From a bacterium (GTDB lineage Bacteria > Bdellovibrionota > UBA1018), in contig JAIEMT010000003.1 in assembly GCA_019751945.1 (NCBI GenBank), forward strand, positions 34,993 through 98,992: DNA of 64,000 nucleotides, read 5' to 3'. The notes under the pieces are model-generated. The model saw nothing but the letters and a program-made list of their open reading frames with translations, was not told the origin of the DNA and did no database searches. A program made the position numbers and the translations under genes. Shown here piece after piece: positions 27,861-52,429 of the stretch; positions within the stretch are counted from its first letter, which is position 1; every line of letters begins with the position of its first letter.

Positions 27861-29277
27861 CTTACTTCTGACTTCGTGGAGCTGGGCGACGACAAACGTC
27901 TATCCCATTTCTCCTTGGTCTCGTTCGGTCGGGACTTCTGCTGTCGCCTACTCCGTCACACCCACCGCTTATGCGGGCGACACGAATTATAAAATCAATT
28001 ACGATTTCACGGTTCTTTCAACAGCTGCGGGAGAAGTTAGTGCTCGAAGCGGCGCCGGTCAACAAAGCCTGATCGACAATACGAACATGCTGTTGTTCAC
28101 GGTTTATTCCAGCAAAACAGATATCGGAGATCCTGCTAGAAATTACATCCTCACTGTGACCATGAACGCCAACAGTGCAGATAGCCGAGTCCCGATCGCC
28201 TTTTTTGGGAACCTCTCAACCGAAACCACAGGAACAGACTGTAACTCTACCGATTGCATCACGGAAACTTTAGCCGACGGAACTTCTTTCTTCGCCGCCG
28301 TTCCTCTCGCCACCAAGGGAATGCCCGCTACGATTGGCATTTATGTTGCCGACATCTGCAAATTCGCGCTCAGTCACTATGGAGCGCCAGAAACGGCCGC
28401 CACTCTTTGTTCCTCTGCGGGAACGAACAACGTCGCAACCGTCGATGCCACATCCGGATACAAAACACTCCCCCTCAAATTTAATATTTACCAAACTACA
28501 GGTGGCAGCACGAATGTCACGGCAGCCAGCGGTTCCACCACTGAAACCGATTCCATCACCATCAAAGCTCAGCTTTCTCAGCCGACCCTGACTTGCCCTG
28601 CAAATCTTTACGCCTCCTATTTTCCGGGAGATGAACAAATCTACGTCGACACCGGTCTTTTCGGTGGAGGTACTGCTATCAGCGGAAATGCAGTAGGCAC
28701 CACCCTGGTAGGCCTGGCTAGTCGGACGGCGACGCCGACGCCGTCGTCCTATCAAGCCATTGGCCGTATGCCCATTCAGTCCGGCCAGCAACCTTTCGGT
28801 GGTTTTGTGAACACCACCGACGGAACGGACAATGCCTACAACATCAGTTATCGGCTTCGCGACGACTCGGGAGTATTTTCCAACGCGGACCCCCTTTGCG
28901 AATTCACCGGCGTTAAAACTTCTGCCATCTACGGATTTCTGAAACAAGGTCAGTGCTTCATTGCTACGGCAGCATTTCAATCTGATAAGGCAGCGCCCGT
29001 CAGTCTCTTGCGAGAATTTCGAGGAGAGGTGCTGCTCAAGTCCGTCTTAGGTCGCGCTTTTGTCCGTTGGTATTATTCTTGGTCGCCCGATGCTGCGCTC
29101 TGGCTCTTAGAAAATCCGGACTTTAGGCAACCCGTTTTATCCTTGCTCTTACCACTTCAGATCTTCGCTTGGATCTGCTTGCGTCCCTTACTGCTAGCTG
29201 CGTTGGTGCTTGCGGGGATTGCGGCTCTCTTAGGGTCTCGGTTCCTAGTTCCGCGAACCTTGCGGGAGGTCGAATGA
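27817..29277 (+). CDS. secreted Thr/Ser-rich protein with conserved C-terminal CFIATAAF-hydrophobic domain
   Basis: Signal peptide; C-terminus CFIATAAFQSD...LREFRGEVLL...GRAFVRWYYSWSP followed by TM-like tail (see finding). Confidence 0.5.
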   Translation: MPSKLAKFCFALSFSLLLTSWSWATTNVYPISPWSRSVGTSAVAYSVTPTAYAGDTNYKINYDFTVLSTAAGEVSARSGAGQQSLIDNTNMLLFTVYSSKTDIGDPARNYILTVTMNANSADSRVPIAFFGNLSTETTGTDCNSTDCITETLADGTSFFAAVPLATKGMPATIGIYVADICKFALSHYGAPETAATLCSSAGTNNVATVDATSGYKTLPLKFNIYQTTGGSTNVTAASGSTTETDSITIKAQLSQPTLTCPANLYASYFPGDEQIYVDTGLFGGGTAISGNAVGTTLVGLASRTATPTPSSYQAIGRMPIQSGQQPFGGFVNTTDGTDNAYNISYRLRDDSGVFSNADPLCEFTGVKTSAIYGFLKQGQCFIATAAFQSDKAAPVSLLREFRGEVLLKSVLGRAFVRWYYSWSPDAALWLLENPDFRQPVLSLLLPLQIFAWICLRPLLLAALVLAGIAALLGSRFLVPRTLREVE

Positions 29278-30278
29278 GAATTCGAACTCTGAGCTTCGTG
29301 AGTCTGACCTTGATCTCGCTTTCGGCCTTTGCCGAACCAGAACTTCAACCCTACATCGATCAGCTGAAGAGCACTCTCCCCGAAGAGAAGCGAGTGCCTG
29401 ATCCAACAGATAGCAACCCGTCTCCATTCATCGACTCCATCAATGCCCAGGCAAAAGATAAGAAAACGGAAACCGATGAAGAATCCTACACCGAACACTT
29501 GAAGAAGACGGATCCGAAGCTCCGTGAAAATGAAGACGCCAAGCCCTTCACTGAAGAAGCGAAGAAAACACTGGGTCCAGGTGAACCCACTGACGGAGCG
29601 ATTGCAGCGGTCACTCAGGGAAAATCGGAACTTCACCCCCGATTGGATGGCGAAATTCACAACGCCTTTGGATTCTCTGTCGGCGGTGGTGGAACTAGAA
29701 ACCTAAGCGCTCCTTCGGATGTTCAAGGCGCAAATTTCAACACCCTTTACGGCAGCGGCTGGGCCCCCGACCTGAGATTCTTTTACGAGTACCAACCCTT
29801 TCACAGCGAATGGTTTGGAAACTTCGGCATCATTGCATCCGGTGCAGTGGCCATTCATACGGGAACGGGCGCCTTCGATCAGAACGTCGATGTGGGTGCT
29901 TCCACTAATTTTGGGAGCTCGTCACAAACCCAGTTTCGATTCCTCACCCTTCCGGCAACAGTCGGCGTAATTTATCGATTCAATCTGCTCCGAGTTATCC
30001 GCCCCTTTGTCTCCGTGAGCGCTGCCGCGGTTGGCTTCATTGAAAGCCGCTCGGACCGAGAAGCGACGATGTCGGGATACTCTTTGGGTTACCAAGCCGT
30101 TGGCGGCGTGAATATTTTGCTCAACGGCGTCAGTAAGGGCGCTCTTTGGGAGCTTTACTCCAGCGCCGATGTGAAGAAATATTACCTCACCGTAGACTTT
30201 ACCCGCCTACAAACCATTATTCGTCCCGTACGATTTGAAATTTCTGCAGTAAACATTGGCTTCACTTTCGAGTATTAA
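29274..30278 (+). CDS. putative outer-membrane beta-barrel protein
   Basis: Signal peptide MRIRTLSFVSLTLISLSAFA; alternating amphipathic strands; C-terminal ...NIGFTFEY aromatic terminus; ATGA overlap with upstream gene. Confidence 0.45.
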   Translation: MRIRTLSFVSLTLISLSAFAEPELQPYIDQLKSTLPEEKRVPDPTDSNPSPFIDSINAQAKDKKTETDEESYTEHLKKTDPKLRENEDAKPFTEEAKKTLGPGEPTDGAIAAVTQGKSELHPRLDGEIHNAFGFSVGGGGTRNLSAPSDVQGANFNTLYGSGWAPDLRFFYEYQPFHSEWFGNFGIIASGAVAIHTGTGAFDQNVDVGASTNFGSSSQTQFRFLTLPATVGVIYRFNLLRVIRPFVSVSAAAVGFIESRSDREATMSGYSLGYQAVGGVNILLNGVSKGALWELYSSADVKKYYLTVDFTRLQTIIRPVRFEISAVNIGFTFEY

Positions 30279-36613: not shown

Positions 36614-36688
36614 TGGGGTGTCGACAAGCGGTAAGTCACTGGATTTTGATTCCAGTATTCCTAGGTTCGAATCCTAGCACCCCAGCCA
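36614..36688 (+). tRNA. tRNA-Gln (anticodon TTG)
   Basis: Manual fold: acceptor TGGGGTG/CACCCCA with U1:A72; D-arm GACA-AGCGGTA-AGTC; anticodon stem CTGGA/TCCAG with loop TTTTGAT; T-arm CTAGG-TTCGAAT-CCTAG; discriminator G; CCA encoded. Confidence 0.85.
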
Positions 36689-37259
36689 ACTTTTCATCTC
36701 CTCTTATTTTTATTAGAGTTTTTTCAGGACTTACATTTTTGCGATCAATTGCGATCACCTCAGCCTCCCACTTTCGGTCGGAGACTTTTGTCAGCGCGCT
36801 TGCTTGGCGTTTTGCATACACATACGCTGACTGTGCCGATGAATTGCCAAGAAGCTGCTTTGCAACTTCGAGGTCAGAGGTTTCGTTATAGAGATTTCGA
36901 GTCCCTCCATGCCTCAAAACATGAGTGCCTGTATACGGCAGTCCCGCACTTCTGAAGGCTTGGTCATAGGCGTATTGAATCTGCCTATACTCAAAATGTC
37001 TTCCTCCTGATTCAAAGATCAGTCCTTTGGCTCCTGAAACATGCAAAGCCTCTAAGGCACGGTAGGTCTGTGGAAACATCGGATGTTCCTTAATCCCTTT
37101 ATTGGAATAGGAATTTTTGAAACCTGATTTTACCGCAGACAAGAGCCCCTTCTTTCTGGGCCATGAGACATATCGCACAACTTTGAGTCGAGACCTCTTA
37201 GGGTCGGACTGCAACAAAGTGTCCCGCTTTTTTGTTAACCGGACTTTTGACGCGATCAT
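36636..37259 (-). pseudogene. int: tyrosine recombinase (phage integrase) C-terminal catalytic fragment, separated from its N-terminal part by an IS insertion
   Basis: HVLRHGGTR (HxxR) box and downstream Tyr region; 3' end overlaps the tRNA-Gln 3' end; the first about 13 codons are IS-derived. Confidence 0.7.
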
Positions 37260-37297
37260 TTAAAGGATGATTTAATCTTTTAAACCGCGTCAAAGGA

Positions 37298-37639
37298 GTG
37301 AAGCGAATGGACCAACAAAATCAGAATACCCCACGTAAAAAGTTATCGCCAGACCAGAAGTTTAAAGTCATCAAAGAGCAAATGACGACGAAGACTTCGA
37401 TAAGCGATATTTGCAAAAAGTACGACATTGTTCCGTCGCAGTTTTACAAGTGGCAGGAGAAGTTTCTGAGTGGAGCTTTGGAGGGTTTCAAAAAATCTGA
37501 TGATGGCCCCACCAAGGCAGAACTTCGTAAAATTGATGAGCAGGAAAAAAGAATTCAGAAAATGCAGTCTGCAATCACCGAAATTATCCAGGAAAATATT
37601 GAGTTAAAAAAAAATCTTGGGGCTTCGGGACTTTTGTAG
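37298..37639 (+). CDS. IS3-family transposase OrfA (HTH)
   Basis: Matches IS3/IS911 OrfA pattern (KFKVIKEQMTTKTSISDICKKYDIVPSQFYKWQEKF, leucine-zipper tail); likely ATG at 37307 after GGAG. Confidence 0.8.
   Translation: MKRMDQQNQNTPRKKLSPDQKFKVIKEQMTTKTSISDICKKYDIVPSQFYKWQEKFLSGALEGFKKSDDGPTKAELRKIDEQEKRIQKMQSAITEIIQENIELKKNLGASGLL
37606..37614 (+). other. A9 slippery run, candidate programmed -1 frameshift site for OrfAB fusion
   Basis: A-run at the end of orfA where the orfB frame overlaps; typical of the IS3 family. Confidence 0.5.
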
Positions 37640-37668
37640 AAGTTCCCCCGGCAATCAGACCGCAAATC

Positions 37669-38604
37669 GTGGCTGATGTTGTTTTGCAACAGGATAGGTG
37701 TGAGCTGCAGCTTGAAGATTTGCTGCTTTGGTATGGGGTTAAAAAATCCACGTTTTATGACTGGCAAAAAGAGCCCACGATGGATGCAGAAAAGCCCCCG
37801 TTTGTAAGCGCCGCCTCGGTTCGTCCCGATGAGATTGCAGCAGTGCTGGCATATCGGGATCTTTACCCAGACATCGGGTACCGCAAGTTCACCTGGCAGA
37901 TGGTGGATGCGAACGTAGCGTTTTTATCGGAAAGCAAGGTCTACGATATTTTATCTGCCCACAATCGGCTTCAGGGATGGAACAAAGTCGACAACGGCGA
38001 AACTGGAAAAGAATATCGTCACAAACCCAGGTACGTTCACTATCACTGGCACACGGATATTGCGTACATCAAAGTGGGTGGAATCTTTTATTTTTTGATT
38101 ATGATGTTGGATGGCTACTCCCGGTATCTGCTGGATTGGGAGCTGATGACGGACATGCTTGGCGGGTCAGTTGAAAATTTTGTTCAACGTGTGAAAGAAA
38201 AATATCCACATGCACGGCCACGGCTGATCAACGACAATGGATCTCAGTTTATCAGTCACGATTTTAAACGACTTTTGCAAAAACTGGAAATCCAACAAAT
38301 ATTTACGCGCAGAAACCACCCGCAAACCAACGGGAAGATCGAACGAATGAATGGCACCGTCAAACAAGAAGCGCTTCGTCCCGGTCAACCTTGCGACTTT
38401 AGCGAGGCGTGGGAAATCTTGAACAAGTACAGTTACGAATACAATCACCAACGGCTGCATGCTGGGATCAATTTTTTGCGACCAGCGGATATGTTTTTTG
38501 GGCGTGGTGGGCAGGTGCTCAACGAACGTCGGGAAAAAATCGAAAATGCCCGCGCCGATCGAAAATCGCTCAACCGCGAGGAACGAATGAAAAATCTCCA
38601 CTAA
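37669..38604 (+). CDS. IS3-family transposase OrfB (DDE integrase core)
   Basis: HTDIAY...LIMMLDGYSR...NDNGSQFIS...HPQTNGKIER rve-domain motifs with D, D, E. Confidence 0.8.
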   Translation: MADVVLQQDRCELQLEDLLLWYGVKKSTFYDWQKEPTMDAEKPPFVSAASVRPDEIAAVLAYRDLYPDIGYRKFTWQMVDANVAFLSESKVYDILSAHNRLQGWNKVDNGETGKEYRHKPRYVHYHWHTDIAYIKVGGIFYFLIMMLDGYSRYLLDWELMTDMLGGSVENFVQRVKEKYPHARPRLINDNGSQFISHDFKRLLQKLEIQQIFTRRNHPQTNGKIERMNGTVKQEALRPGQPCDFSEAWEILNKYSYEYNHQRLHAGINFLRPADMFFGRGGQVLNERREKIENARADRKSLNREERMKNLH

Positions 38605-38636
38605 ATTTTTGCGTCAAAAGTCCGGATAGAAAAAAG

Positions 38637-39455
38637 CTAGACAAAAGATACGTCCTCCCAAAAAAGCCCTGCTACCTCAGAAATTCTCAAAGCCTGAAAA
38701 TATTGAACAGTTGCCATTGCCGAAAAGATCTCTCCATTTGGCTGCTCTCGAAGCTTTTCACAAAATCCCGAGAACTCTTCGACGGTAAGATCTCTAGATT
38801 TAGGTTTCGATTCACGGTTCAGCTTAACGGCCTTCTGGTGTCTCTCCTTGATCGGGTACCTGTATCTGGAGTCGTCATAGTACTCGCCATAGTATTTGAG
38901 AATCGTCCCTAATAACGAAAGCTCGTGATCAAATGACTTTCTGCGAACAGATTTCATAAAGGATCCTCTTGGGTCCTTCAAGGAATCAATCCATCGATCT
39001 ATTGCTGCTGAATCAGTTTTGAGAACTGGCAAATCCATCAACTGCTGAAAGTAAAGATTCACAATCTTTTCGTAGGCTACTCTTGTACTTTCCGCGAGCG
39101 TCGGAAATATTCTCGTTTTCCATTCTTCAATCAGCGTACCGAGAACAGGTCCTAAATCAGTTAAAACCCCGTCTGCCTTTATTTGAGTTTCCTGCGAAGC
39201 CTGCCACTTTCTGGCTTCCTCTAAAGTTGAAAAATACTCACTGATACGAATTGGTTTGCCATTAGCATCAGGTTCATACTTTTTAGCTAAATAATACTTT
39301 CCAGAAATTGGAAGAAGGTATTCTTTCCTGTCATTGTTCCAGACATATAAACGAGAGATCCTCGGCGCTCCGATGACTGCTCTATAAATACGATTCTTTC
39401 CTTCGTATTGTTTTGGATTTAGTTTCTTCACGGTTTGCTCCTTTTTTTGAGCCAC
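38637..39455 (-). pseudogene. int: tyrosine recombinase (phage integrase) N-terminal fragment: SAM-like domain plus box I
   Basis: Ends ...ALRISEVAGLFWEDV (box I Arg region) immediately before the IS end; continues in 36636-37259. Confidence 0.7.
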
Positions 39456-39618: not shown

Positions 39619-40044
39619 TTAGCCACCCTTCTTGTTTTTTTCAAGAGGTATGGTCGCAAAATCCAAGGTAAGTCCAACCCGTCCTCCTTCAAGAAGATAG
39701 TCTATGAGGAGGTTGTCCGGCGGGACCGATTCGCCCTTCCCTTTTAGAGGGCTACCAGAAGGGGGGGCGGGGGTTCTTTTTGGGTCAGGTTTCTCCAACA
39801 ATTTCAACAACAATTCATTCGAGTAACAATATCGACGAGACATTCTAAGCTGCCTCTTAGTTTCCAAAGGAACTTCCAAGTACTGAACCATGAAATCCAG
39901 GCCTGATTTTTTTAAAACAATCTTTTGAGGAAATGGCAGTAGATCAGAAAATTTAGAATCCGCGAGCTTCCTACTCTCGTTAAAAATATAAGCTACAAAA
40001 AGGTCGGGTCCTCTTTTTCTGATAAGACCGTACTTTCCAAACAA
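39619..40044 (-). CDS. hypothetical protein (island-encoded)
   Basis: 141-aa ORF, AT-rich, no recognisable motif; ATG-TGA-coupled to alpA. Confidence 0.3.
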   Translation of the reverse strand: MFGKYGLIRKRGPDLFVAYIFNESRKLADSKFSDLLPFPQKIVLKKSGLDFMVQYLEVPLETKRQLRMSRRYCYSNELLLKLLEKPDPKRTPAPPSGSPLKGKGESVPPDNLLIDYLLEGGRVGLTLDFATIPLEKNKKGG

Positions 40045-40077
40045 CCTCAGATCTTGTGAATTGACGTCGTCTTAAGG

Positions 40078-41533
40078 TCAGTTGAAATTTGAAGTTGAGT
40101 GGTTCACTCTTTCGGCAACTACGCTGTCAGAGAAACTCAACCGGTTGGATCGTAAAATCCGGCCAGACAAGGAACCACTCAACATGTCTATCCAAATATA
40201 TTTAGCCAATAAAAAGCGCAAGCCCCGTCGTCCAGTCGTCGCGATTAGTTGCCAGGAACTGGAGGCGGGACAAGTCCCAGGGTTCGAGCCTGGCGTGATG
40301 ATCGACTCCCAGCACTTGCTCATCTCGACATTGCTACCGCCAGCGGTGAAGGAGTTTCTCGCTCAATGCGAGAGGGAGGTCGCGAGCATCTGCGGAAAGC
40401 CTCACGCTCGTGAGGAGGGACTACTGTCGCGCTGGGGCACCCAGGCGGGATCGATCTATCTGGGAGGCCAGAAAGTCGCAGTGCAAAAGCCGCGCGTCAG
40501 GGGTAGCGAGGGCGAGCACACGCTCTCGACCTACGAGAGGTTTCAAGACCCCGCTCTTTTTGATCAGCAGGTATTCCAGGAGGGGATCCGCCGCGTCAGT
40601 CAGCGCGATTACGAGAAGGGGCTTCCGAAGATTGCTGCGAGCTTTGGAATGAGTAAAAGCAAAGTTTCAAAAAGCTGGGTAAAAGCAACGGAAAATCAGC
40701 TCGAAAAACTTCGTACTCGAAGCCTCAAAGAATTTGGAATCATAGCCGTCTTCATCGACGGCAAACGTTTCTCCAAACTCGGCGCCATCGTCGCGCTGGG
40801 AGTGGGAGCGGATGGGCGAAAACATGTGATCGGGCTTTATCAGAGTTCGACTGAGAACTCGGCTGCCTGCCGGGAACTTCTGGACGATCTGGAGCGGCGT
40901 GGATTGCCCGAAAGTGAGTTGCTGTTTGTCGTCGACGGCGGCAGCGGCTTGAACAAAGCCTTGGATGAAAAATATCAGTTGCACGATCCAAAGCAGAGCC
41001 GGGCCGTGCGAGTCCGTTGCCATATTCACAAATGGCGAAATATCACGGACGTGCTGACGCCGAAACAGAGCGAAGAGGCGTCAGGATTGTTCTGGGCCAT
41101 TCGGGAGGCCAGAGATCTGACTCAAGCCCTGGAGTGTGCGGCCTCACTGGAGCAGCTGCTCGGGAAGTTTAACGCCTCTGCGTTAGCCAGCTTTTTAGAG
41201 GCCAAGAATGACCTCCTGGCGCTTCATCGTCTGGGGCTCTCGGCTGAACTCCGGAAATTTTTCTCTACAACAAACCCGATCGAGAGTTTAAATTCTCTGC
41301 TCGAAGAGGACCTGAGGCGAGTGAAACGTTGGCAGGACTCGGCGCACTTCCAGCGCTGGCTTGCTACGGCATGTTTGCAGAACGAAAAGCGAATGCGACG
41401 GATCCGGGGCTTCCGATCTCTGCCAGCCGTCGTTGTGAGACTACAGTCGTTGTGTAATCAGGAAAAATCCGTTGACAAAGATACTCGAGCTGCGTGATGA
41501 ACTGCGAGCCACTCAACCGAGAGTTTCAACTGA
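40078..41533 (+). mobile_element. IS256-family (Mutator-type) insertion sequence, about 1.46 kb
   Basis: About 28-bp imperfect terminal inverted repeats TCAGTTGAAAYTY...GTTGAGTGG at 40078-40105 and 41506-41533 (rc); GC content higher than flanks; no clear 8-bp TSD. Confidence 0.65.
40082..41497 (+). CDS. IS256-family transposase
   Basis: C-terminal TTNPIESLNSLLEEDLRRVKRW matches the Mutator/IS256 TTNxIExxNxxhRRR signature; the ORF-track start lies within IRL, so the true start is probably internal (e.g. around 40184). Confidence 0.7.
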   Translation: MKFEVEWFTLSATTLSEKLNRLDRKIRPDKEPLNMSIQIYLANKKRKPRRPVVAISCQELEAGQVPGFEPGVMIDSQHLLISTLLPPAVKEFLAQCEREVASICGKPHAREEGLLSRWGTQAGSIYLGGQKVAVQKPRVRGSEGEHTLSTYERFQDPALFDQQVFQEGIRRVSQRDYEKGLPKIAASFGMSKSKVSKSWVKATENQLEKLRTRSLKEFGIIAVFIDGKRFSKLGAIVALGVGADGRKHVIGLYQSSTENSAACRELLDDLERRGLPESELLFVVDGGSGLNKALDEKYQLHDPKQSRAVRVRCHIHKWRNITDVLTPKQSEEASGLFWAIREARDLTQALECAASLEQLLGKFNASALASFLEAKNDLLALHRLGLSAELRKFFSTTNPIESLNSLLEEDLRRVKRWQDSAHFQRWLATACLQNEKRMRRIRGFRSLPAVVVRLQSLCNQEKSVDKDTRAA

Positions 41534-41630
41534 GTGAAGGACAAGGTCTGTGAATTAATTTTATTTTCAACAGCCCTATAGGAGCCAATATACTTAAGAC
41601 TCGTTTTAAAGCCGCTTATTTTTCTGGGTT

Positions 41631-42587
41631 TCATGCAGGCCTCCTTTCGGAGGCTCTTAGACCAAGAAAACGATTAATACGTTTTTTCCAAATCTTATTA
41701 AGATCTATATCTAATTTGCCAATGTAAGGAGCAATCGTCTTCGAAAAGTTACTACTAGAGTTGAATTCCTTTTTCGCAGGAGCAAAACCTATTTCAGCAG
41801 ATCTTTTTAAAAAATGCTGAACTACATGTGAACTCTTCAAACTCTTAAGCTGTACCTGCGACACCTGTTGAAATCTCAACCGCTCAAAAGGACTAATTGT
41901 CTGTAGCTTGTCGACTTCAGACAATGTCTTGATTGGTATTTTTTTTCCGTGAAGCTCAATTTCAATTCTAACCGCGTCAATATGACCGAAATCTGCTGGA
42001 CTATTCTTTGGAATGCAGTCGACGTCCTCTATTGGGACGCCACTTTTTTCGTACAATCTAACTAGGAAGGGCCGGCTTCCCATATAGAGGGTGCGTCCCC
42101 CGTCGCTTGACCACCGCTCGAAAGTTCTACATCCTGGCAAACTAATGCTCTGTGAAATTGTCGGATACGGAATGGCAAGGTTGACGCACAAATCTAATCG
42201 ATCGATCCTACCCTGTTCGATAATTTGACTGGAGAGGGAACCGAAGAGATCGGCGCTCCATTGTTTGAATTGGGAAATCGTCGAGAATTGGGACATGTGA
42301 AACTGGAGTAGACCTGGTGGTAGTGTTCCTCTCCTCGGCTCGAAACTAAAAAATACGTGATGATCATCTAAGTATCCCTCCAAACCATGACCAAGAAGGA
42401 AAACCACGCTTCGATACCATAGTTTTAACTCCAACTCAGTAATGGAACCACCCAAGTCTTGAACAAAATCCCTCGTTTTTTTGATAGCCGTGTTCTCTCT
42501 AAATTTCTCTCTTAGAATATGCAGGTTTTTGAGCGAGCTAGGATGGCGAAAACCGGCAAGTCCAGTGGGTGTGGAGGCAAATCCCAC
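41631..42587 (-). CDS. rep: rolling-circle replication initiator, Rep_trans (pT181 RepC-like) family
   Basis: Collinear matches to RepC motifs: RIDRLDLCVNLAI (cf. FTRLDLAFDFED), TLYMGSRPFLVRLYEK (cf. KYFGVRDSNRFIRIYNK), HIDAVRIEIELHGK (cf. HLWRVEIELKRD); similar length (318 vs 314 aa). Confidence 0.6.
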   Translation of the reverse strand: MGFASTPTGLAGFRHPSSLKNLHILREKFRENTAIKKTRDFVQDLGGSITELELKLWYRSVVFLLGHGLEGYLDDHHVFFSFEPRRGTLPPGLLQFHMSQFSTISQFKQWSADLFGSLSSQIIEQGRIDRLDLCVNLAIPYPTISQSISLPGCRTFERWSSDGGRTLYMGSRPFLVRLYEKSGVPIEDVDCIPKNSPADFGHIDAVRIEIELHGKKIPIKTLSEVDKLQTISPFERLRFQQVSQVQLKSLKSSHVVQHFLKRSAEIGFAPAKKEFNSSSNFSKTIAPYIGKLDIDLNKIWKKRINRFLGLRASERRPA

Positions 42588-42591
42588 TCCG

Positions 42592-45276
42592 CTATTGATA
42601 CTCCCTTGAAAGATAACCTAAGAAATTATCGACAGTACGATAAAAAACTAACGGCAAACCCGATGAGTTTAGGAGAAGCTTGGGGTATTGCCCTGCCAAA
42701 GAAGTGAAAGATCCACCGGAAGTGTTCTGATCGAGGTATTCGGCAGTCCAAGCTGCCTCTGTGACTAGCCGAGATTGTAAGGCGAGGCCCTGGAAGGCAG
42801 CTGAATAGTGAGAGATGTAGATTCTTCCTGAAGAGGTCACCTGAATACTCGGTGAAGTCACAATGTTTGAAGACGTTCCGGATGCTGCAACCACTTCTCC
42901 CGTAAATGCACCGGATCCTTGAGAAACACACCCAGCCACAGGTCCAGAGCATCCAACATACCTTATTTGTCCTGCGGTCATATCAAAGTGAGCAATGTGG
43001 GGAGAGTCGCTTGAGTCTAAGACCATTGAAATTCCCTCTCCTCGGGTGTTTCCTGAACTATCTAAAGATAAACAAGTCCATGAATAAGTAGACGATGTTA
43101 ACGCCTCGCTCGCGTAAGCTAGTTTAAGTGCACCATCCGACTGGTATACGATTACTGGTCGTCCAGTCGAAGTTAAAGCAAGGGTGGCATACTTCCCTGC
43201 ATCATTAGCTACGTTCCCGCAGGAACCTGTTCCTGTCATTCCATCGACGCTAAACCTCTTCCATCCCCCGCCGGGAGAAAAACGCGAAAACTTTAAACCA
43301 GTAGCACTGGCATCATAGTAGGCGACCCCTAAAGAAGTGCCTGACGAAGCGACCGAAGGGTATTGCCCTACATTGGCACTCGTGTCATCGACGACGGTGA
43401 CGGAAAATCCGGACTCATCATTCACTGATCTAGCTACATGAAGAGCCTGCGAAGCCGCTAGTCCGTTATAAAATGCGATAACTGGAGAATTATTAGAGTC
43501 ATAGGCTAAGCTCGGATAAGAACCAACGAACTGACCTGCTACACTCTCTGCCATGTTTACCACTGAAATTTGAGAAAAGGTTGGACTCCCAGCCGAGCCC
43601 CCCCTGACACCGTAATAAAGCTTCATATCGCCTGCAGTAGAGTCTTGAAAAAAGTATGTGTATCCTACTGTCCCCGAATTTGATTTTGCTGCCGCAAAAA
43701 CAGGTAAAGCTGTAGTGGGAAATAAGGATACTAAATTGTCGACATAGTCGAGTACAAAAGAACCAGCTGCGCCTCCGTTGGTAATGTCTGCCGCGATGCC
43801 AGAAGAAAGAACAATGTCATTTCCTGTTGCTCCTGCTCCTGCTGCTGGTAGTTGAGCGAAGGAACCATAAAGGGCATCAGAATTAAAATCATAAACAGCC
43901 CCCACTCCCTCAGCGCCTACAGTGGTCGTGGCAATCGTGGTGCCAGTAGCAAGCCATGCGCCAGCCGGCCCCGTCGATTTGTTTGCCAAAATCGTTGTCG
44001 TGCTATCCAAATAAAAAATGAAGTTTAAATTAATTGATGAACTCGAAGAAGCTAGCCTGAAACCGTTTTGCCCTTCATTTGATGCTCCTACCGATAAAGG
44101 TGCTCCCCAGGATCCCGATGCTCCTGTTTGTGAGTTTCCACAAGTTTGCGGAGCAGTTGCGGTGTACAAAGTGTTCGCAGGCGTAGCAGTCGTGTATAAA
44201 CCCACGATGGGGCGCTGAGTTGCTGCATCAATAGTGATGTCCATCCGGGTCGCTGCATTGGTGGTTGTTGTTATTCCTGCGGAAAAGCAGCTGGTTGCAC
44301 CTGTGCACCCATTAGAGAGCGACAAGGGACTCCAGGTCGAGCAGCTCCCGTTCGCATTCAAAGCTGTGCATCGAATTAAATAGGGTTTACCCGACCCAGC
44401 CGCCGCATCTACCGATGGCGTAGCTAAGAGCAACATGCCGTTTGCTGGACACATCACCGCTCCAGCTTGCATTGCACCTTGGGTCAACCCAGTAATGGTA
44501 CCGGCCCCGGAAACGGAGGCCATTACATCAGAGACAGACCAACTACCGGATGTGCTTCTAAATGCGTACTTTATAAAACTGTTTCCCACTAAGGTCTGCG
44601 CATAAAAAGAAAAAGTAAGATGAGGACGATTAGAAGAATCGAAGTTCAGTGTAAGCCCTTTGATTGCATCCACAGTGGCAGTGTTGGCGGCATTTGTGGC
44701 GCCTGCCGTAGCTGACGAAGCAAATGGTACCGTGATAGTCCATTCCCCGCTGGTTGAGCGCTCGGCATATCTCACTTGTTTATTCCCGGATCCGTTGAGA
44801 CTCATGCCATAGACATAGGCAATTGAAGGTCGCCCATCTGTGGTAAATGCGAGGCGAATAATACTCGCAGTTCCAGCGGCAGCAGCATTAGGCGCTCCGA
44901 GACAATAACTTCCTGCTATGCCACACACCACTGTCCCATAGTTGGCGTCCACCAGTTCGATGTTCCATCGTCCAAAAGTATCCAAGTAAGCATATTTGAG
45001 ACCCCCAACTGCTGCGGTTCCCGAGAATGAAGAATTCTTATCGTAGTAGGACACCGCGGGCCGCAGAGAAATCGGGTCGAGAGCCATATCATTTACTCCA
45101 CCGGTAAATGAATTAAAACTAAGAGAAGGTCCCGCCGCTACAATTCGTCGAATATCACTAGTGCCCCCACTATTGGTGGTGTCAGGTACCCCACTTATCT
45201 CAGTCTCGCAACCCAGCAGGAAGAGAACTAGTAGGACCGTCATTCCTGAACGGAAATTATTTTTCTGACTCAACAT
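42592..45276 (-). CDS. large (about 894 aa) Thr/Ser/Gly/Ala-rich surface lipoprotein, probable beta-rich adhesin/fibre
   Basis: Lipobox LLGC after MLSQKNNFRSGMTVLLVLF; very low-complexity Gly/Ala/Ser/Thr composition with repeated S/T-G-S motifs; GAGGGG RBS; 4 nt upstream of rep. Confidence 0.55.
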   Translation of the reverse strand: MLSQKNNFRSGMTVLLVLFLLGCETEISGVPDTTNSGGTSDIRRIVAAGPSLSFNSFTGGVNDMALDPISLRPAVSYYDKNSSFSGTAAVGGLKYAYLDTFGRWNIELVDANYGTVVCGIAGSYCLGAPNAAAAGTASIIRLAFTTDGRPSIAYVYGMSLNGSGNKQVRYAERSTSGEWTITVPFASSATAGATNAANTATVDAIKGLTLNFDSSNRPHLTFSFYAQTLVGNSFIKYAFRSTSGSWSVSDVMASVSGAGTITGLTQGAMQAGAVMCPANGMLLLATPSVDAAAGSGKPYLIRCTALNANGSCSTWSPLSLSNGCTGATSCFSAGITTTTNAATRMDITIDAATQRPIVGLYTTATPANTLYTATAPQTCGNSQTGASGSWGAPLSVGASNEGQNGFRLASSSSSINLNFIFYLDSTTTILANKSTGPAGAWLATGTTIATTTVGAEGVGAVYDFNSDALYGSFAQLPAAGAGATGNDIVLSSGIAADITNGGAAGSFVLDYVDNLVSLFPTTALPVFAAAKSNSGTVGYTYFFQDSTAGDMKLYYGVRGGSAGSPTFSQISVVNMAESVAGQFVGSYPSLAYDSNNSPVIAFYNGLAASQALHVARSVNDESGFSVTVVDDTSANVGQYPSVASSGTSLGVAYYDASATGLKFSRFSPGGGWKRFSVDGMTGTGSCGNVANDAGKYATLALTSTGRPVIVYQSDGALKLAYASEALTSSTYSWTCLSLDSSGNTRGEGISMVLDSSDSPHIAHFDMTAGQIRYVGCSGPVAGCVSQGSGAFTGEVVAASGTSSNIVTSPSIQVTSSGRIYISHYSAAFQGLALQSRLVTEAAWTAEYLDQNTSGGSFTSLAGQYPKLLLNSSGLPLVFYRTVDNFLGYLSREYQ

Positions 45277-45286
45277 AGAATCCCCT

Positions 45287-46090
45287 CTAAAAATTAAAAC
45301 GCACCTCGAATGGAACCGAGATTGGCAAAATTCGTTCGGAGGCTGACTGGGTACCCCTGGAACCTGCACCGGAAAAAAACTTTTGTTCCCATGTCGCGTT
45401 TGCAGATACACCGACCTGAAGGACTTCAGTAATACTGTATGTAAGAGCTACTTCTGGTTCGATAAAATATCCGAAATTATAAAACCCCGTATTTTGGTTC
45501 TTCTCGTAGTGAGAAATTGGGAAGCCAAATGAAATGCGAAACTCAAAACGAAAGTCACTCTTAAGTGAATTTATGTACTCTGTGAGAAAAAGAAGCCTCG
45601 TACTGCTCAGAGAGCTCATGACCTCACTCGGTGACGTTGGGGGGGTTGACTGCTGAAGAAGCTCTGCGCCTAAACCGAGCGATAATTTATCCACCACGGA
45701 AGAGCCACTGTCGGACTGAAAAAGATACCCGCTTAACAAAAAGCGTACTTTGGTGACCTCCTGGTTTACGCTGGACGGAGAAAGGCCACTGACTTTTAAC
45801 GTTACAGCTGTTTTCAGAAAAGTGGCTCGAATATAAGTCCCTGATTCACTCAGACGTCGTCGCAGCTCAGCTCCATAGACAGCGCCCGAACCATTAGGTA
45901 CCGACAAGCTCAGGCCAGAGCTATTCAAAGAATAGTTTAGTAAGCTCATACCCCCGAAAACTCGCGCGATCCACTTAGAGTTTTCGCCTGACAGATTTAG
46001 GCTATCCATATTCACTTTTTGTGGATTCTCTGCCCATGCAACCGTTCCGAAAGCTAAAATTGCGACAAGGCTAGCGGCAATCGCTTTCAT
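45287..46090 (-). CDS. outer-membrane beta-barrel protein
   Basis: Signal peptide MKAIAASLVAILAFGTVAWA; alternating-hydrophobic strands; C-terminal ...VPFEVRFNF with terminal Phe. Confidence 0.5.
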   Translation of the reverse strand: MKAIAASLVAILAFGTVAWAENPQKVNMDSLNLSGENSKWIARVFGGMSLLNYSLNSSGLSLSVPNGSGAVYGAELRRRLSESGTYIRATFLKTAVTLKVSGLSPSSVNQEVTKVRFLLSGYLFQSDSGSSVVDKLSLGLGAELLQQSTPPTSPSEVMSSLSSTRLLFLTEYINSLKSDFRFEFRISFGFPISHYEKNQNTGFYNFGYFIEPEVALTYSITEVLQVGVSANATWEQKFFSGAGSRGTQSASERILPISVPFEVRFNF

Positions 46091-46710
46091 CGGGGAAGCT
46101 CCTGCTCTCTAAATCCTTCGAATAGATAATTCGGATTCTTGGTGGCAGAAGGGCTAGTCTGCAATGAAGGTGGTGGTCCGACTGCAACCGTATTGCTCAA
46201 AGCAGGTCCAAAAGGTGCAAAGGCAACGGTATTTTTCGCTAATCTTTCAGATCCAGGAAGCAATATTTGCCGCGATCTCTCACGGGGTGAGGAATCGCCA
46301 ACTGTAGCAATGTCTCTTTCAGGCTGTGGGGGAACTATTGCCTCGAACTGAGAAGTAGCAGTGTCTAAGAGCCGACGAATTCCGTTTTTGACTTCTTCAA
46401 TTGTAGAAACTTTTAAAACGTACCGAAGCCTCTTTTTTGACAAACCCATTTCCTGGAGCTCTGGAATTCGAAGCTTTGTACCTAACGACACCACATCAGG
46501 ACTAGTAAGTCTATTTTTGTTTGCATCATAAATCTCACGCCAAAGTTGATGCGTTCCAAAAATACGATACGAAAAAGTTGCCAGTGTTTCGCCCGAAAGG
46601 ATGGTCTCCTCACGTACGGTGTCGGCGGAGTATCCAAGTTCTAAAAAAAAGAAAAAAGCAAACATTACCCAAATACAAATACGCATCCATTTACCGATCA
46701 TTAGGGGCAC
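46087..46710 (-). CDS. LysM domain-containing secreted protein
   Basis: TVREETILSGETLATFSYRIFGTHQLWREIYDANKNRLTSPDVVSLGTKLRIPEL is a canonical LysM; N-terminal TM/signal; Pro-rich C-terminus. Confidence 0.65.
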   Translation of the reverse strand: MPLMIGKWMRICIWVMFAFFFFLELGYSADTVREETILSGETLATFSYRIFGTHQLWREIYDANKNRLTSPDVVSLGTKLRIPELQEMGLSKKRLRYVLKVSTIEEVKNGIRRLLDTATSQFEAIVPPQPERDIATVGDSSPRERSRQILLPGSERLAKNTVAFAPFGPALSNTVAVGPPPSLQTSPSATKNPNYLFEGFREQELPR

Positions 46711-48169
46711 CTCCTAATGATCCAGCAAGCTTGCGTTTTAGTGAGTTCAGTTTTCTCGATGTCGATAACTCTAGGTGCGTTGGAACCTTGGCTCGTTCTA
46801 AAATGCTGATAGCCTCGTTAACTTTTCCAGTTTTTTCCATTAATAGTGCCAGGTTGACGCTCGCCTTAGGTCCAAACTCGGCATGATTCACTATTTTTCG
46901 GTATCTCGCTTCTGCTTCTTCATTTGCACCGGCAGATTCTAGAGTTAGAGCCAAATTAAAAGAGATAACAGGGTTCTCAGGATATCTTTTCTCAGCACCA
47001 AGGAGAATTTCAGCCGATTCTTTATATTTTTTCTGTTGATAAAATGTAATCGCTTTAAGGACAGCCACCTCGGGGTCAGTCTCTTCACTGGTTCTTATTT
47101 TCTTAATTTTATCGTAGGCCTGTTCGGGCAGATTGAAAGACAAGTAAAGTTTTGCCAATGCAATTGAGGCCCAGGACTGGTCCGGAGCCCTCTCATTATA
47201 AACAGCAACTAAGGAACCCGCTGCCTCCAGCTTTTTTTGGCTGATATAAAGATCAAATAGCAATCGGGTCGCCTGGTCAGAGGCAGGTTCTATTTTCAAC
47301 ACCTCTCGCAATGAATCTTCGGCTTTGTCGGGTTGCTTCAACTGAAGGTAAATCTCTGCTAAGCGCAAGCGCGGACTAGTTATCAAAGGTTCCAGTTCAA
47401 CAATTTTCGTTCCAACAGTTTGCGCTTCGCCTAAGCGTCCCAATGCCACCAATGCTTCCATCTTCCCATTCCAACCAGCCAAATTGGAGGGGTGGCTCGT
47501 CACGATACGTTCGAAAATGCGAAGACTTTCTTTTGCCTGATGGGTTTTAAGGTAAATATTTCCCAGACTTTCAAGTGCGGCTAAATTGTTGGGATCAGAT
47601 AAAAGCACTCGTAAGTAATCACTAATGGCGAATGTGGTCTTGCCCAACGCCTCGGCATTCCTAGCCGCTAAAAGGATTAAGTCTAAACTCTTACCTTTCT
47701 GTTTGCGTGAAGCCAAGAGTTCTTCAAGTTCAATATGTCTTGATAAACTGAAGAGGAGCTCGGCCCGTAGGATAAGAGCCTCTGGGTAGTCCCCCCGCAA
47801 CTTTTCAGCACGGCTTACTTCGACAAGAGCATCTTCCGATTTTCCGAAAGCCTTTAGACACTTGGCTTTAAGAAACCGTGCCTCTGCCCTAAACGGATTC
47901 TGATCTTCCAATAACTCATTGACCATAGCCAGAGCTTGATCTGGGTTGCCTACCGCTAATAGTACGCGAACCTGGCCTGTAATCGCTTCTTCCCGATACT
48001 CGCTTCTCTGAGCGAGCCGACGGTAAATTGAAAGAGCTGTGCGGAAATCATTGGAGCGTTCGGCGCTCTTAGCCAAAGAAATGTAATCAACGACGTCGAT
48101 ACCCTGCGCCCTTGGCTCTCCAATAAAAATTAAGCTAAATAAGCAAAGGACCCTAATGCAGTTCCCCAT
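46691..48169 (-). CDS. tetratricopeptide-repeat (TPR) protein, secreted
   Basis: Signal peptide then more than 10 consecutive TPR-like 34-aa helical repeats (A/L/Y-rich, W-LG-Y pattern). Confidence 0.7.
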   Translation of the reverse strand: MGNCIRVLCLFSLIFIGEPRAQGIDVVDYISLAKSAERSNDFRTALSIYRRLAQRSEYREEAITGQVRVLLAVGNPDQALAMVNELLEDQNPFRAEARFLKAKCLKAFGKSEDALVEVSRAEKLRGDYPEALILRAELLFSLSRHIELEELLASRKQKGKSLDLILLAARNAEALGKTTFAISDYLRVLLSDPNNLAALESLGNIYLKTHQAKESLRIFERIVTSHPSNLAGWNGKMEALVALGRLGEAQTVGTKIVELEPLITSPRLRLAEIYLQLKQPDKAEDSLREVLKIEPASDQATRLLFDLYISQKKLEAAGSLVAVYNERAPDQSWASIALAKLYLSFNLPEQAYDKIKKIRTSEETDPEVAVLKAITFYQQKKYKESAEILLGAEKRYPENPVISFNLALTLESAGANEEAEARYRKIVNHAEFGPKASVNLALLMEKTGKVNEAISILERAKVPTHLELSTSRKLNSLKRKLAGSLGGAPNDR

Positions 48170-48265
48170 GCATTAGTTATCGGGATCTTTTGTAAAGTAT
48201 TAAAAAAAAAAAGAAGGCAATCTTTTGACTGTGATGGAGCCGGCCCCAGGGCCGTGAAATGAGTT

Positions 48266-49303
48266 CTAATTTGTAGAAACCATCATACTCGTTACGCAAC
48301 GAGTATAAATTTGGGACGGGATATACGGACTAGTTCCAACGCGAGTTAAGGCGCCCGAGGCATAAGTAAACTTTTCAATGGTATTCGAGGTACTCAACGC
48401 ATTCGCGACATAGACATTGCCGGATGACGAATCAAGAGCCATAGCGGAGGGACCATTGATGATGGTCGAGTCCGAAAATGCAACTGCGGTATTAGAGATC
48501 GCGTTAGTCGTCGGATTGATGTCGTAAGAGTAAACATAATTTGATCCTGCAGTCGTGCTTCCATAGGCAACCAGTATTTTTCCGCTCGTATGCATCATGA
48601 TCCCAGTGGGCAGAGCCGTAGTACTAGGAGCCGTTTGCGAGGAGAGACAATCAGCAGACACGCTGTATCCGGTGGCTGCAATGACACCAAATTTGTTGTT
48701 CGGAGTTGCTGCCGCGTGGGCGTAGAGAATCTTTCCATTTGAGAGCGTGGTCATGCTGGAGATTAATGTGGTCGAGGTGGCACAGGAACCTGCCGGTGCG
48801 CTAACAAAAGGATTGGCCCCAGAGGTGATGCGAGATTTGTTAGAAGAAAATTTCTCAAGAGCCGTACCTTTGCTAACCAATAAACCTCCATCCGGCGACA
48901 TAAATATGCCTCGAAGCTGTGCGCTCATGGCCGTACTATTCACCAAATAGGTCGTTACCGTGTTGTAATAGGTCTTATCTACAAGATCAATTCTGCGACC
49001 ACTTGCGTTTTCAACCAAAACCAAAATTTGAGATGAGCTATAGTTGACCATGCCCACTGGCGAGTCGGATGGAGAAAATGAGTTGTAATCTACCAGTAGA
49101 GTATCATAGGCCCCCGTGGCCAAATCAAACTTAGTAATCGTGTTAGAGGCAGTGCTCACGGCGACGCCTCCACCGTAACAGGTCCCGCTTGCGACGTAGA
49201 GGAATGGGCCACTGGTTCCGGAAGGGGTGAGTACGTCCAAATTACCGCAGCTAAAGGCGACAGAACTAAGAGTCAAAACCAAAAAAAATCTTGACCTGGG
49301 CAT
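48266..49303 (-). CDS. lipoprotein, Ser/Thr-rich, probable beta-propeller-like repeats
   Basis: Lipobox AFSCG after MPRSRFFLVLTLSSV; repeated hydrophobic-strand/S-T-G segments; first gene of the five-gene minus-strand operon; the ORF-track start at 49321 is probably too far upstream. Confidence 0.45.
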   Translation of the reverse strand: MPRSRFFLVLTLSSVAFSCGNLDVLTPSGTSGPFLYVASGTCYGGGVAVSTASNTITKFDLATGAYDTLLVDYNSFSPSDSPVGMVNYSSSQILVLVENASGRRIDLVDKTYYNTVTTYLVNSTAMSAQLRGIFMSPDGGLLVSKGTALEKFSSNKSRITSGANPFVSAPAGSCATSTTLISSMTTLSNGKILYAHAAATPNNKFGVIAATGYSVSADCLSSQTAPSTTALPTGIMMHTSGKILVAYGSTTAGSNYVYSYDINPTTNAISNTAVAFSDSTIINGPSAMALDSSSGNVYVANALSTSNTIEKFTYASGALTRVGTSPYIPSQIYTRCVTSMMVSTN

Positions 49304-49492
49304 TTTACTTCCTCCGCGCATTTCGATACCACCAATATTATATCGTAATTATTTAGTTAATAGTTAAGGGCGGAATACGACATAGGGCGTTATATCTCTC
49401 ATAACAGCTTGTTAAATATTCTAAATGTAATAAATTGTTAACCTTTTGTTTTTTGTCAACTCACAAGTTCGTTCTGCCGAACGGTAATAGTA

Positions 49493-50505: not shown

Positions 50506-50805
50506 TCACGCGGCTCTTATTTTGACGTGCTTGGCGAGAATCTCATTGATGAGCGATTGATAGCCCGTGCGCTTCTCTTTGGCCTCACGGCGAATACCCT
50601 TAAGTGTTTCCTGGTCAATTCTCACGGCGATAAGTTTTCGCGGCGCGCTCCCAAGTAGGGGGCGACCCAAGCGCTTCATTGCATCAAGCTGCTTCCCGGA
50701 TAGTTCCGGAATGTCCGAAAAATCGATCTTACGATCGAGGATAGACTTTGCGCTCTTTTTTGCTGGCACACCGCGAGCTGATGATGCGGAATTTTTCTTT
50801 GCCAT
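50506..50805 (-). CDS. brnA: BrnA antitoxin (RHH/CopG-like) of type II BrnT/BrnA toxin-antitoxin system
   Basis: IDFSDIPELS...GRP...KLIAVRIDQETLKGIRREAKEKRTGYQSLINEIL matches the BrnA consensus. Confidence 0.65.
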   Translation of the reverse strand: MAKKNSASSARGVPAKKSAKSILDRKIDFSDIPELSGKQLDAMKRLGRPLLGSAPRKLIAVRIDQETLKGIRREAKEKRTGYQSLINEILAKHVKIRAA

Positions 50806-50977
50806 CTTTGCTTCTCCTCACTGTAAAAATAAAAGTCAGAATTCGACCTCGCTCTGACTTCGCGATTGCAACATACCGGTCTTCTGATTTTGAGTGAGAG
50901 CAGCTCATCGTCTCTTCAAAGCTCACGCCATGCTTTTCAAGGTTCCTGGCTGCTTTACGACTTTCCCGCTCAAACAC
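50729..50977 (-). CDS. brnT: BrnT toxin (DUF497 ribonuclease)
   Basis: ARNLEKHGVSFEE...HSKSEDRYVAIA...RILTFIFTVRR...FRIISSRCASKKERKVY matches the BrnT consensus; 82 aa. Confidence 0.65.
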   Translation of the reverse strand: MFERESRKAARNLEKHGVSFEETMSCSHSKSEDRYVAIAKSERGRILTFIFTVRRSKDGKEKFRIISSRCASKKERKVYPRS

Positions 50978-51834: not shown

Positions 51835-52203
51835 GCGTTGCCCACTCGTATCGTTACAGTCTGAAGGTCTTCCAAGGATTTTGAGATCAAATCTTTATCC
51901 GACGACTTTTTATCAAGCGGAGTTCCTTACTTCTGAAAGGGGATGTTGCTCCTTCAAGGGCTTCGTCACAAATTTTCTTCACTGCTATTTCCTGACATTT
52001 CGCGAGTTGTCCTATTTTGCTGAAAATTTAAAAAAACCCCACGAAATAGGCGTTGTTTAACGCAGGTGCTTGTCCTACAATAGGACAAAACGGGCAGTAA
52101 GTAATGGATTTTATTCAGTCCCAATCAAACCAGCCATTTAAAAAAGATTAAACTCCCTCAAAATAAAAAATCTCCGACAAACCAATCGACTATTCGAAGC
52201 ACG

Positions 52204-52223
52204 CTGGGGTGCTAGGATTCGAA
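52204..52223 (-). repeat. exact 20-bp inverted copy of the tRNA-Gln 3' end (TTCGAATCCTAGCACCCCAG)
   Basis: 52204-52223 is the reverse complement of 36666-36685; candidate att remnant or island boundary; pairs 13/14 with 52360-52373. Confidence 0.7.
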
Positions 52224-52429
52224 GCGAAGGACGCGACCCGCGGACGACTCCAAAGGAGTCGGACGAGGGGCGGCGCAGTGAGGGAGCGTGAAGCGACCGA
52301 ACGTAGTGGCCGAATCTCGCCCGAGGCACGCGCGTGCCGAGCCTCTAAGCAAGAAGACAAATCCTAGCCCCCCTTGTCCTCCATTGCCTTTGTTTGCTTT
52401 TCTAAGCAAAAAATTGAATCTGATATACT

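Follow-up and report, generated by a model that had tools for sequence, protein, structure and literature searches.

Introduction

Rep_trans nickases are known from plasmids, integrative conjugative elements (ICEs) and integrative mobilizable elements (IMEs) of Firmicutes and from a few filamentous phages of Gram-negative bacteria. The locus studied here raises the question of what a gene for such a protein, rep, is doing beside an integrase gene in a Bdellovibrionota-like chromosome, with about 195 relatives in metagenomes. The window, i.e., the whole stretch of 64,000 nucleotides (nt) of contig JAIEMT010000003.1 that was analyzed, and to which all coordinates refer unless a related locus is named, had been the subject of a preliminary description made from the letters alone, in which rep was taken for a pT181 RepC-like rolling-circle initiator with three possible origins: an integrative element, a captured plasmid or a filamentous-phage remnant. 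The answer that we consider likely, which for the mobility of the ancestral element draws on analogy with known systems, is that rep encodes a divergent Rep_trans nickase of a rare family, that this family forms a module in small integrative elements, and that the copy in the window has decayed.

Fold and catalytic residues of Rep

The open reading frame (ORF) of rep was recovered where the preliminary description had placed it, on the minus strand and with 318 codons, the annotated start codon being GTG (Table 1). In Pfam, the protein matched PF02486 with 17.7 bits (E 0.0029), over residues 159–225 only, and did not reach the gathering score of 29.6 bits. The earlier claim of a RepC match over the full length was therefore overstated, since residues 1–68 are not alignable even to the protein's own family. 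Taken alone, this sub-threshold score would speak against a Rep_trans assignment altogether, a verdict that is reversed by the family profile and the conserved residues described below. NCBIfam and PADLOC scans gave no match, the best PHROG match was PHROG_453 (‘replication initiation protein’, E 0.38), and a single-sequence phmmer search of the Protein Data Bank (PDB) returned nothing. An AlphaFold2 model from a two-sequence alignment was uninformative (predicted local distance difference test score of 32).

The family became visible only with an exhaustive HMMER scan. Besides the protein itself, a single relative (49% identity) came out of a word-indexed search of 5.8 billion clusters, and word-indexed searches overall retrieved 2–4 relatives, whereas the HMMER scan of 1.84 billion representatives recovered 195, nearly all of 270–350 aa and 85 of them at E≤1e-10. 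The family profile matched, among PDB sequences, RepDE/RepDN of S. aureus (4CWC/4CWE, E about 1e-5) and RepSTK1 of Geobacillus (4CIJ, E 0.0098), with all three motifs of the preliminary description in register; in particular, motif I was aligned to RLDLAFD and motif IV to RVEIEL of 4CWC. Structural similarity, expressed as template modelling (TM) score, was 0.45–0.52 to plasmid Reps versus 0.29 to an inovirus Rep, and the best match in a library of viral structures (BFVD) was a weak one to a Rep_trans-type Rep of Inoviridae (E 4e-4). The crescent-shaped catalytic fold of two β-sheet modules was likewise found for the window Rep.

The three collinear motifs that had been noted earlier are all present and in the order given. 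Motif I reads R130-L-D132-L (codons of R130/D132 at 42200–42192; for the RxD definition, see PMC4797284 and PMC5714925), motif II T166-L-Y168-M-G170 (42092–42078), motif III R177-L-Y179-E-K181 (catalytic Y179-E-K181 at 42053–42045) and motif IV R207-I-E209-I-E-L (R207/E209 at 41969–41961), followed by a C-terminal helical domain of residues ~222–310. The patterns expected of Rep_trans proteins are T/S-x-Y/E-x-G for motif II, (R)xYxKxxE for motif III and RxE for motif IV. Conservation was counted, here and below, in an alignment of 99 family members. R130, D132, R207 and E209 are invariant in 99/99, and Y179 (98/99), G170 (97/99), K181 (88/99) and Y168 (79/99) are kept to varying degrees. Because these positions are invariant or nearly so across the family and are aligned to the motifs of RepDE and RepSTK1, the motifs are not chance matches.

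The active site of RepDE comprises the catalytic Y191 with R189 and K193, T176/Y178/G180, R140/D142/A144/D146 and R212/E214, the metal ligands being D142, E214 and the N-terminal D46 (Carr et al. 2016, PMC4797284). By alignment, a check suggested in the preliminary description, Y179 is the counterpart of the catalytic Y191. The window Rep agrees with these residues everywhere except at three positions, namely D146, the strictly conserved second Asp of motif I, in place of which the window has N136 (93/99 relatives have D here, and 5 have N), A144, which is replaced by C134 (C in 57/99, A in 14), and the N-terminal Asp. In addition, the Glu that trails motif III (E196 in RepDE) is missing, with V184 in its place; RepSTK1 likewise lacks it (Q184), and an E196Q change has minimal effect (PMC4797284). 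As judged from these alignments, the window Rep belongs, if as a highly divergent member, to the Rep_trans superfamily, whose fold it shares with the tyrosine nickases pT181 RepC/RepD and RepSTK1, and its predicted catalytic core is intact.

The N-terminus of the window Rep

The third metal ligand is supplied by motif N', an Asp on strand 1 (D46 in RepDE, D9 in RepSTK1; PMC5714925). Most relatives of the window Rep start with M-D-T (31 sequences), M-x-D (23) or M-G-T (12), followed by a β-strand and a helix, and it is here that motif N' is located. The window rep has CTG (L22) as the counterpart of their start Met codon, followed by His-Ile, and the annotated GTG lies 21 codons upstream of it, directly behind the gene for a 939-aa protein. 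A family hidden Markov model (HMM) built without the window sequence aligned residues 69–313 only; residues 1–68 are not family-like, and none of the other upstream reading frames encodes the 43 missing N-terminal profile positions. The loss of the motif N' Asp applies to the window copy and not to the family. The 5' end of the window rep appears, from its sequence, to be either badly diverged or replaced.

A rep-orfX-xis-int module abutting tRNA-Gln

On the minus strand, rep is the first gene of a module that continues with orfX, an excisionase gene and a tyrosine integrase gene and that abuts a tRNA-Gln gene, the 3' end of which (36666–36688) forms the putative attachment (att) core next to the integrase. 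The integrase gene is split in two. Residues 12–260 of the intact integrase of a related locus, L007, align to 39365–38640 and its residues 258–388 to 37205–36810, and because this protein aligns contiguously across both halves, they were once one gene. The small helix-turn-helix (HTH) protein Xis scored 29.2 bits against the excisionase model TIGR01764 (cut-off, 28.8) and is also named as excisionase family in the JGI annotation.

The gene orfX is interrupted as well. After in silico removal of an insertion sequence (IS) and one copy of its target duplication, a 173-aa protein is restored, of which a 141-aa ORF lies on the far side of the insertion. Its ATG overlaps the stop codon of rep (ATGA), which suggests that its translation may be coupled to that of rep, and an ORF start overlapping the rep stop codon is also found in L001, L003, L004, L006, L007, L008 and L009. 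Across relatives, orfX is conserved in position and variable in sequence; it had no match in Pfam, PHROG or PDB searches.

The same order, rep, a variable ORF or none, an HTH_17 gene and a tyrosine integrase gene, recurs in seven independent metagenomic loci (L003–L009). In a more distant subgroup, P0009 (L010–L012), rep is adjoined by a serine-type resolvase gene and two Endonuc_Holl genes instead of the tyrosine integrase gene.

Insertion sequences, decay and fixation

The neighboring IS256 of the preliminary description proved to be real: its Mutator-family transposase and terminal inverted repeats (Table 1) are accompanied by an 8-bp target duplication, TGTGAATT, at 40055–40062 and 41549–41556. 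It lies 83 bp from the stop codon of rep, and in metagenomes of the same population the contigs break off at this repeat. This proximity could be taken to mean that a pT181-type rolling-circle plasmid was captured in the chromosome, e.g., via IS256. However, the IS is a simple insertion in orfX with its own duplication and forms no junction, rep lines up with xis and int in operon-like fashion by a tRNA gene, the relatives are integrative and devoid of plasmid features, and a tblastn search with Rep found no similar gene in 72,556 plasmid records. Plasmids of the pT181 type are, moreover, autonomous and have Firmicutes hosts, whereas the window rep is chromosomal, integrase-linked and without a pT181-like origin inside the gene, in a host of the Bdellovibrionota. 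The integrative context, the nature of the IS256 insertion and the missing plasmid-record match led us to exclude a captured plasmid.

A second IS, of the IS3 family, interrupts the integrase gene at about codon 259. It carries terminal inverted repeats of 39 nt (37229–37267 and 38597–38635), and no clean target-site duplication was identified at its ends. This insertion is old and fixed, because it is shared by related strains from other samples (L013, L015, L016); the tRNA-Gln/integrase junction, too, is the same in related strains (L013–L016). Furthermore, in strains of at least 90% identity from several other samples, the split integrase, IS3, Xis, orfX and the contig break at IS256 show an identical arrangement, and for this reason the remnant must be regarded as fixed and vertically inherited. 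An empty tRNA-Gln site was found in none of the related strains, all of which carry the same degraded element.

The element in the window is a fixed, decayed remnant and most likely immobile. Its probable immobility follows from the splitting of the integrase gene and orfX by ISs and from a rep gene that has no canonical start, no N-terminal motif and no upstream origin-like motif. That rep is instead a domesticated or fortuitously expressed gene, now co-transcribed with the surface-protein operon upstream and kept to serve the host, or else a recent pseudogene devoid of function, seems improbable to us. Such a fate would agree with the intact 318-codon ORF, the retained core residues, the fixed arrangement and the distance of only 4 nt from the 939-aa gene, which leaves no intergenic promoter region; however, the genes that accompanied it have been destroyed, neither the N-terminal motif nor the canonical start survives, and only identical copies are available, in which selection is not measurable.

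Table 1. Position of rep and of the other features discussed in the text.
Feature	Position	Strand	Basis and details
rep, divergent Rep_trans-fold nickase	41631..42587	minus	318 aa as annotated; sequence, family alignment and profile searches
tRNA-Gln (UUG), putative integration target	36614..36688	plus	ARAGORN; Rfam RF00005, 61.9 bits
Tyrosine integrase, C-terminal catalytic half	36636..37247	minus	Pfam Phage_integrase, E 1.5e-6
Tyrosine integrase, N-terminal half	38637..39455	minus	PHROG_1 integrase, E 1.6e-18
Xis, excisionase-type HTH_17 DNA-binding protein, 62 aa	39428..39616	minus	Pfam HTH_17, E 8.4e-9; PHROG_66 excisionase
orfX, C-terminal part	39619..40054	minus	joins the 5' part in frame after in silico removal of IS256
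orfX, 5' part	41549..41634	minus	sequence and in silico reconstruction; cut by IS256 after 29 codons
IS3-family IS	37229..38635	plus	orfA 37298–37639, orfB 37669–38604; HTH_Tnp_1, rve and rve_3 domains
IS256-family IS, inside orfX	40063..41548	plus	transposase 40082–41497, Transposase_mut E 1.7e-26; imperfect terminal inverted repeats
Secreted/envelope operon, possible cargo	42592..49321	minus	351-aa NHL-like, 492-aa TPR, 207-aa, 267-aa outer-membrane protein (OMP)-like and 939-aa lipoprotein genes
BrnT/BrnA type II toxin-antitoxin pair	50506..50977	minus	PF04365 BrnT, E 6e-14; PF14384 BrnA, E 3.4e-7
tRNA-Gln-derived hairpin	52196..52380		inverted 21/23 copy of the tRNA 3' end (52201–52223) and 13/14 arm (52360–52373)

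Related elements and a candidate origin upstream of rep

Relatives of rep reside in small elements of about 7–10 kb. In the closest of them, a gene for a protein of ~316–318 aa lies directly upstream of rep (L001, 2269–3219; L004, 3421–4377; L005, 4702–5652); it is missing from the window. The proteins of L001 and L004 are 38% identical, and that of L005 has no BLAST similarity to either; no Pfam, PHROG or PDB match to this protein was found, nor did searches with the cargo proteins yield any. The ~316-aa protein may be a partner of Rep. As side observations, cargo proteins of L004 (1622–2101) and L005 (3242–4405) carry the newly defined Pfam domain PF27186 (PM0630, precomputed annotation) and signal peptides, and L005 opens with a fragment of a serine recombinase. 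Scans of genome contigs for further loci yielded no relatives, and a scan of metagenome contigs yielded one partial locus.

In the window, rep starts 4 nt past the stop codon (42592–42594) of the 939-aa ORF on the same strand, as the preliminary description had reported for a large surface-protein gene; the ORF does have a lipoprotein-type signal sequence. An intergenic region is accordingly absent, whereas the four closest relatives have 145–500 bp upstream of rep. There, in L001, L004, L005 and L006, two conserved blocks, sTATTAYAy and yCAGTACGAs, were found at a fixed spacing of 24 nt, 35–51 nt before the ATG (35–75 nt overall). The second block reads CTCTACGAC in L001 and supplies the 3' half of a small hairpin; the region from −80 to −30 upstream of the rep genes for P0003 (L004) and P0004 (L005) carries TATTACAT...CAGTACGA. 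As judged from their sequence and position, these blocks are candidates for an origin, a nick site or an operator. They were not found in the more distant relatives L008–L010. The motif is absent from the whole island in the window, including the two stretches in which the preliminary description had proposed to look for an origin (41500–41640 and 42590–42700), and neither an origin-like hairpin nor such a motif adjoins the window rep.

Divergently transcribed genes for cI-like HTH repressors are present in L004, L005, L006 and L009, which together with Xis and Int amounts to a phage-like regulatory layout. It is conceivable that rep provides the replication function for a phage satellite or for a cryptic prophage-like element similar to phage-inducible chromosomal islands, with excision under repressor control, replication upon helper infection and packaging, and the only viral structural match, the Rep of Inoviridae mentioned above, could be cited in its favor. 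We assign this reading a low probability, however: the accessory genes have no PHROG packaging, capsid or terminase matches, tblastn with Rep found nothing in 50,697 phage records, IMG/VR viral contigs contained no Rep relative, and the cargo resembles secreted or lipoprotein genes.

The same structural match bears on the filamentous (inovirus-like) prophage remnant of the preliminary description, in which Rep would be an initiator like RstA of CTXphi. Rep_trans initiators do occur in filamentous phages of Gram-negative bacteria (PMC4797284), and the Rep_trans/Phage_CRI proteins CTXphi RstA and M13 gpII show that this type of active site works in Gram-negative hosts and in integrating elements. 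Nevertheless, no Walker A/Zot (pI) ATPase gene, no set of small single-transmembrane coat or other morphogenesis genes, no single-stranded DNA-binding gene and no PHROG packaging functions were found in the window or the related loci, and the TM score of the inovirus Rep was below that of the plasmid Reps. We consider a filamentous prophage very unlikely. Of the three origins proposed in the preliminary description, only the integrative element has held up, with rep, xis and int next to a tRNA gene.

Extent, possible cargo and boundary of the island

Base composition is atypical from 36.7 to about 50 kb, a stretch that comprises the integrase through rep, the operon of the 939-, 267-, 207-, 492- and 351-aa proteins and a gene for a 201-aa OMP-like protein. 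The GC content at third codon positions (GC3) was 0.37–0.50 in this island compared to 0.51–0.63 in the flanks, and the tetranucleotide correlation was 0.51–0.75 compared to 0.83–0.91; for the five-gene operon, which is as atypical in composition as int, xis, orfX and rep, it was 0.51–0.65. Apart from the TPR and a weak NHL match, the five proteins of the operon have no Pfam domains. Ser, Thr, Gly and Ala are abundant in the 939-aa lipoprotein. Read at its longest, its ORF shares 125 nt with the 267-aa gene upstream; JGI calls a protein of 894 aa. In relatives, too, genes for lipoproteins or for proteins with signal peptides are located upstream of rep. On the basis of composition and of these relatives, the operon, including its surface-protein gene, may be cargo of the island rather than host DNA, and its low GC3 suggests a horizontal origin together with the rep/int module, although the odd composition of surface-protein genes could have other reasons. 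A second atypical stretch at ~5000–10500 (GC content 0.44–0.48, tetranucleotide correlation down to 0.70, GC3 0.44–0.50) encodes a 343-aa protein with weak similarity to MdoC-like acyltransferases and a 506-aa protein without family match, and may be another island.

The BrnT/BrnA toxin-antitoxin genes, two ORFs that overlap by 77 nt in different frames, are located at the compositional boundary of the island and, like the atypical composition, count in favor of its foreign origin. Beyond them lies a hairpin derived from tRNA-Gln, in which the inverted copy covers the T-loop, the 3' strand of the T-stem, the 3' strand of the acceptor stem and the discriminator; no such copy is expected in shuffled sequences. 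The hairpin encloses a GC-rich, strongly structured segment of 137 nt, and the whole of 185 nt has a predicted folding energy of about −77 to −80 kcal/mol. It received no ARAGORN or Rfam call, and the window contains no second copy. Possible explanations are an att scar, a footprint of rearrangement or a structured RNA. For an inversion, in which the rest of the element and attR would have been flipped, neither inverted repeats at the junctions nor homologues of the relatives' upstream genes were found in the window.

The host

The chromosomal setting claimed in the preliminary description is corroborated by the genes for ClpB, DegP, RseP, trigger factor, Asd, PepP and MotAB in the window. The closest named relatives of the trigger factor (53–63% identity) are metagenome-assembled genomes of Oligoflexia, Bdellovibrionia, Bdellovibrionales and Bdellovibrionota, which, together with the outer-membrane protein described below, suggests that the host is likely a deep-branching member of the Bdellovibrionota from a poorly sampled lineage. 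The expression “Gram-negative predator-like” used earlier is supported as far as the Gram-negative, Bdellovibrionota-like nature of the host is concerned; a predatory lifestyle finds no support in the data. At 27817–30278, a CFI-box-CTERM protein (NF041770, E 1.7e-19) adjoins an outer-membrane β-barrel protein with a weak match to Bd0486 and MXAN_2562.

Discussion

Nicking by NicK of ICEBs1, by Orf20 of Tn916 and by the proteins of this type in streptococcal IMEs starts rolling-circle replication on the excised circle and/or serves relaxase function (PMC5704250, PMC5714925). By analogy with these proteins and with pT181 RepC/RepD, Int and Xis of the ancestral element would have excised a circle from the 3' end of tRNA-Gln, and Rep would have bound an origin upstream of its own gene. 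It would then have nicked one strand via Tyr179, with a metal ion held by Asp132, Glu209 and the N-terminal Asp, and become covalently joined to the 5' end, whereupon host helicase and polymerase would have carried out rolling-circle replication, so that the excised circle was maintained or amplified. The same nick could have served as an origin of transfer (oriT), feeding the conjugation pore of a helper.

This last possibility leads to a variant in which Rep is mainly a relaxase of the MOBT type and the element an IME that nicks oriT and relies on a helper's conjugation pore rather than replicating itself, an interpretation that we rate as possible but rather unlikely. Relaxases of the Rep_trans type are indeed used by Tn916, ICEBs1, ICESt3 and, along with tyrosine integrases, by many streptococcal IMEs (PMC5704250, PMC6499999), the related elements, with their small size and lack of transfer machinery, are IME-like, and IMESag-rpsI has a toxin-antitoxin system, as does the island in the window. 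However, no TcpA/FtsK-like coupling protein and no type IV secretion system (T4SS) domains were found among the island ORFs or the accessory genes of the related loci, MOBT systems have been described only in Firmicutes, and a relaxase role is compatible with replication, given that NicK and Orf20 do both.

With respect to known systems in general, the element has most in common with the MOBT ICEs and IMEs (Tn916 Orf20, ICEBs1 NicK, ICESt3 RelSt3, IME_Sga2069_rpmE, IMESag-rpsI), namely a Rep_trans-type nickase combined with a tyrosine recombinase and an excisionase for putative integration into the 3' end of a tRNA gene or another conserved gene, an expected dual role in replication and/or transfer and a small, cargo-bearing layout that sometimes includes toxin-antitoxin genes. 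It differs from them, besides the missing transfer functions, in that no N-terminal HTH domain was detected in the family scans, in belonging to another phylum, in a Rep clade that scores below the thresholds of the Pfam, NCBIfam, PHROG and PADLOC models and in accessory genes (the ~316-aa protein and orfX) without known counterparts. From pT181 RepC/RepD and RepSTK1 (4CWC, 4CWE, 4CIJ; PF02486), the window Rep is set apart by its score below the Pfam gathering threshold and by the want of an identifiable N-terminal Asp motif.

Several observations weigh against a divergent Rep_trans nickase in a once mobile, now decayed integrative element, and were taken into account in calling it likely rather than certain. 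The identity of the window Rep to the solved Reps is only 12–15%, and no more than 13 of the 99 family members match PF02486 at E≤0.01 (best, 1.6e-5), from which it also follows that this rare and previously unannotated clade is, by sequence, beyond the reach of the current Pfam model. A direct att repeat of the tRNA 3' end was sought on the plus strand and not found; the sole tRNA-derived copies lie about 15.5 kb away and consist of the inverted copy and the arm that pairs with it in the hairpin. Within the contigs of the related loci, no tRNA gene was found next to the integrase gene. The hairpins of the upstream blocks are weak (z −0.3 to −1.9), and the motif could simply be a promoter or an operator. 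Finally, the window rep is still an uninterrupted frame of 318 codons with all core catalytic residues, and may be active or co-opted.

A wider proposal, which we put forward tentatively and regard as somewhat less probable than not, concerns the family as a whole. Its members may represent undescribed small integrative elements of Bdellovibrionota and other uncultured diderms, with the layout cI-like repressor, secreted or lipoprotein cargo, ~316-aa protein, Rep_trans protein, variable ORF, Xis and Int, which would undergo rolling-circle replication or mobilization from an origin of the form TATTAYAY-N15-CAGTACGA just upstream of rep. In itself, the locus indicates that integrative elements with a nickase of this kind, familiar from Gram-positive bacteria, are present in this phylum as well, even if the window copy has probably lost its mobility. 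The window copy, as a decaying remnant, is of value as a pointer to this family and not as a working system. If the proposal is true, the integrative lifestyle of Rep_trans/MOBT elements would extend beyond Firmicutes, and these bacteria would have a route for exchanging envelope genes. If intact members of the family are active, they would offer candidate small replicons or integration vectors for bacteria that are hard to engineer, as well as a new means of studying horizontal transfer in a phylum about whose mobile elements very little is known.

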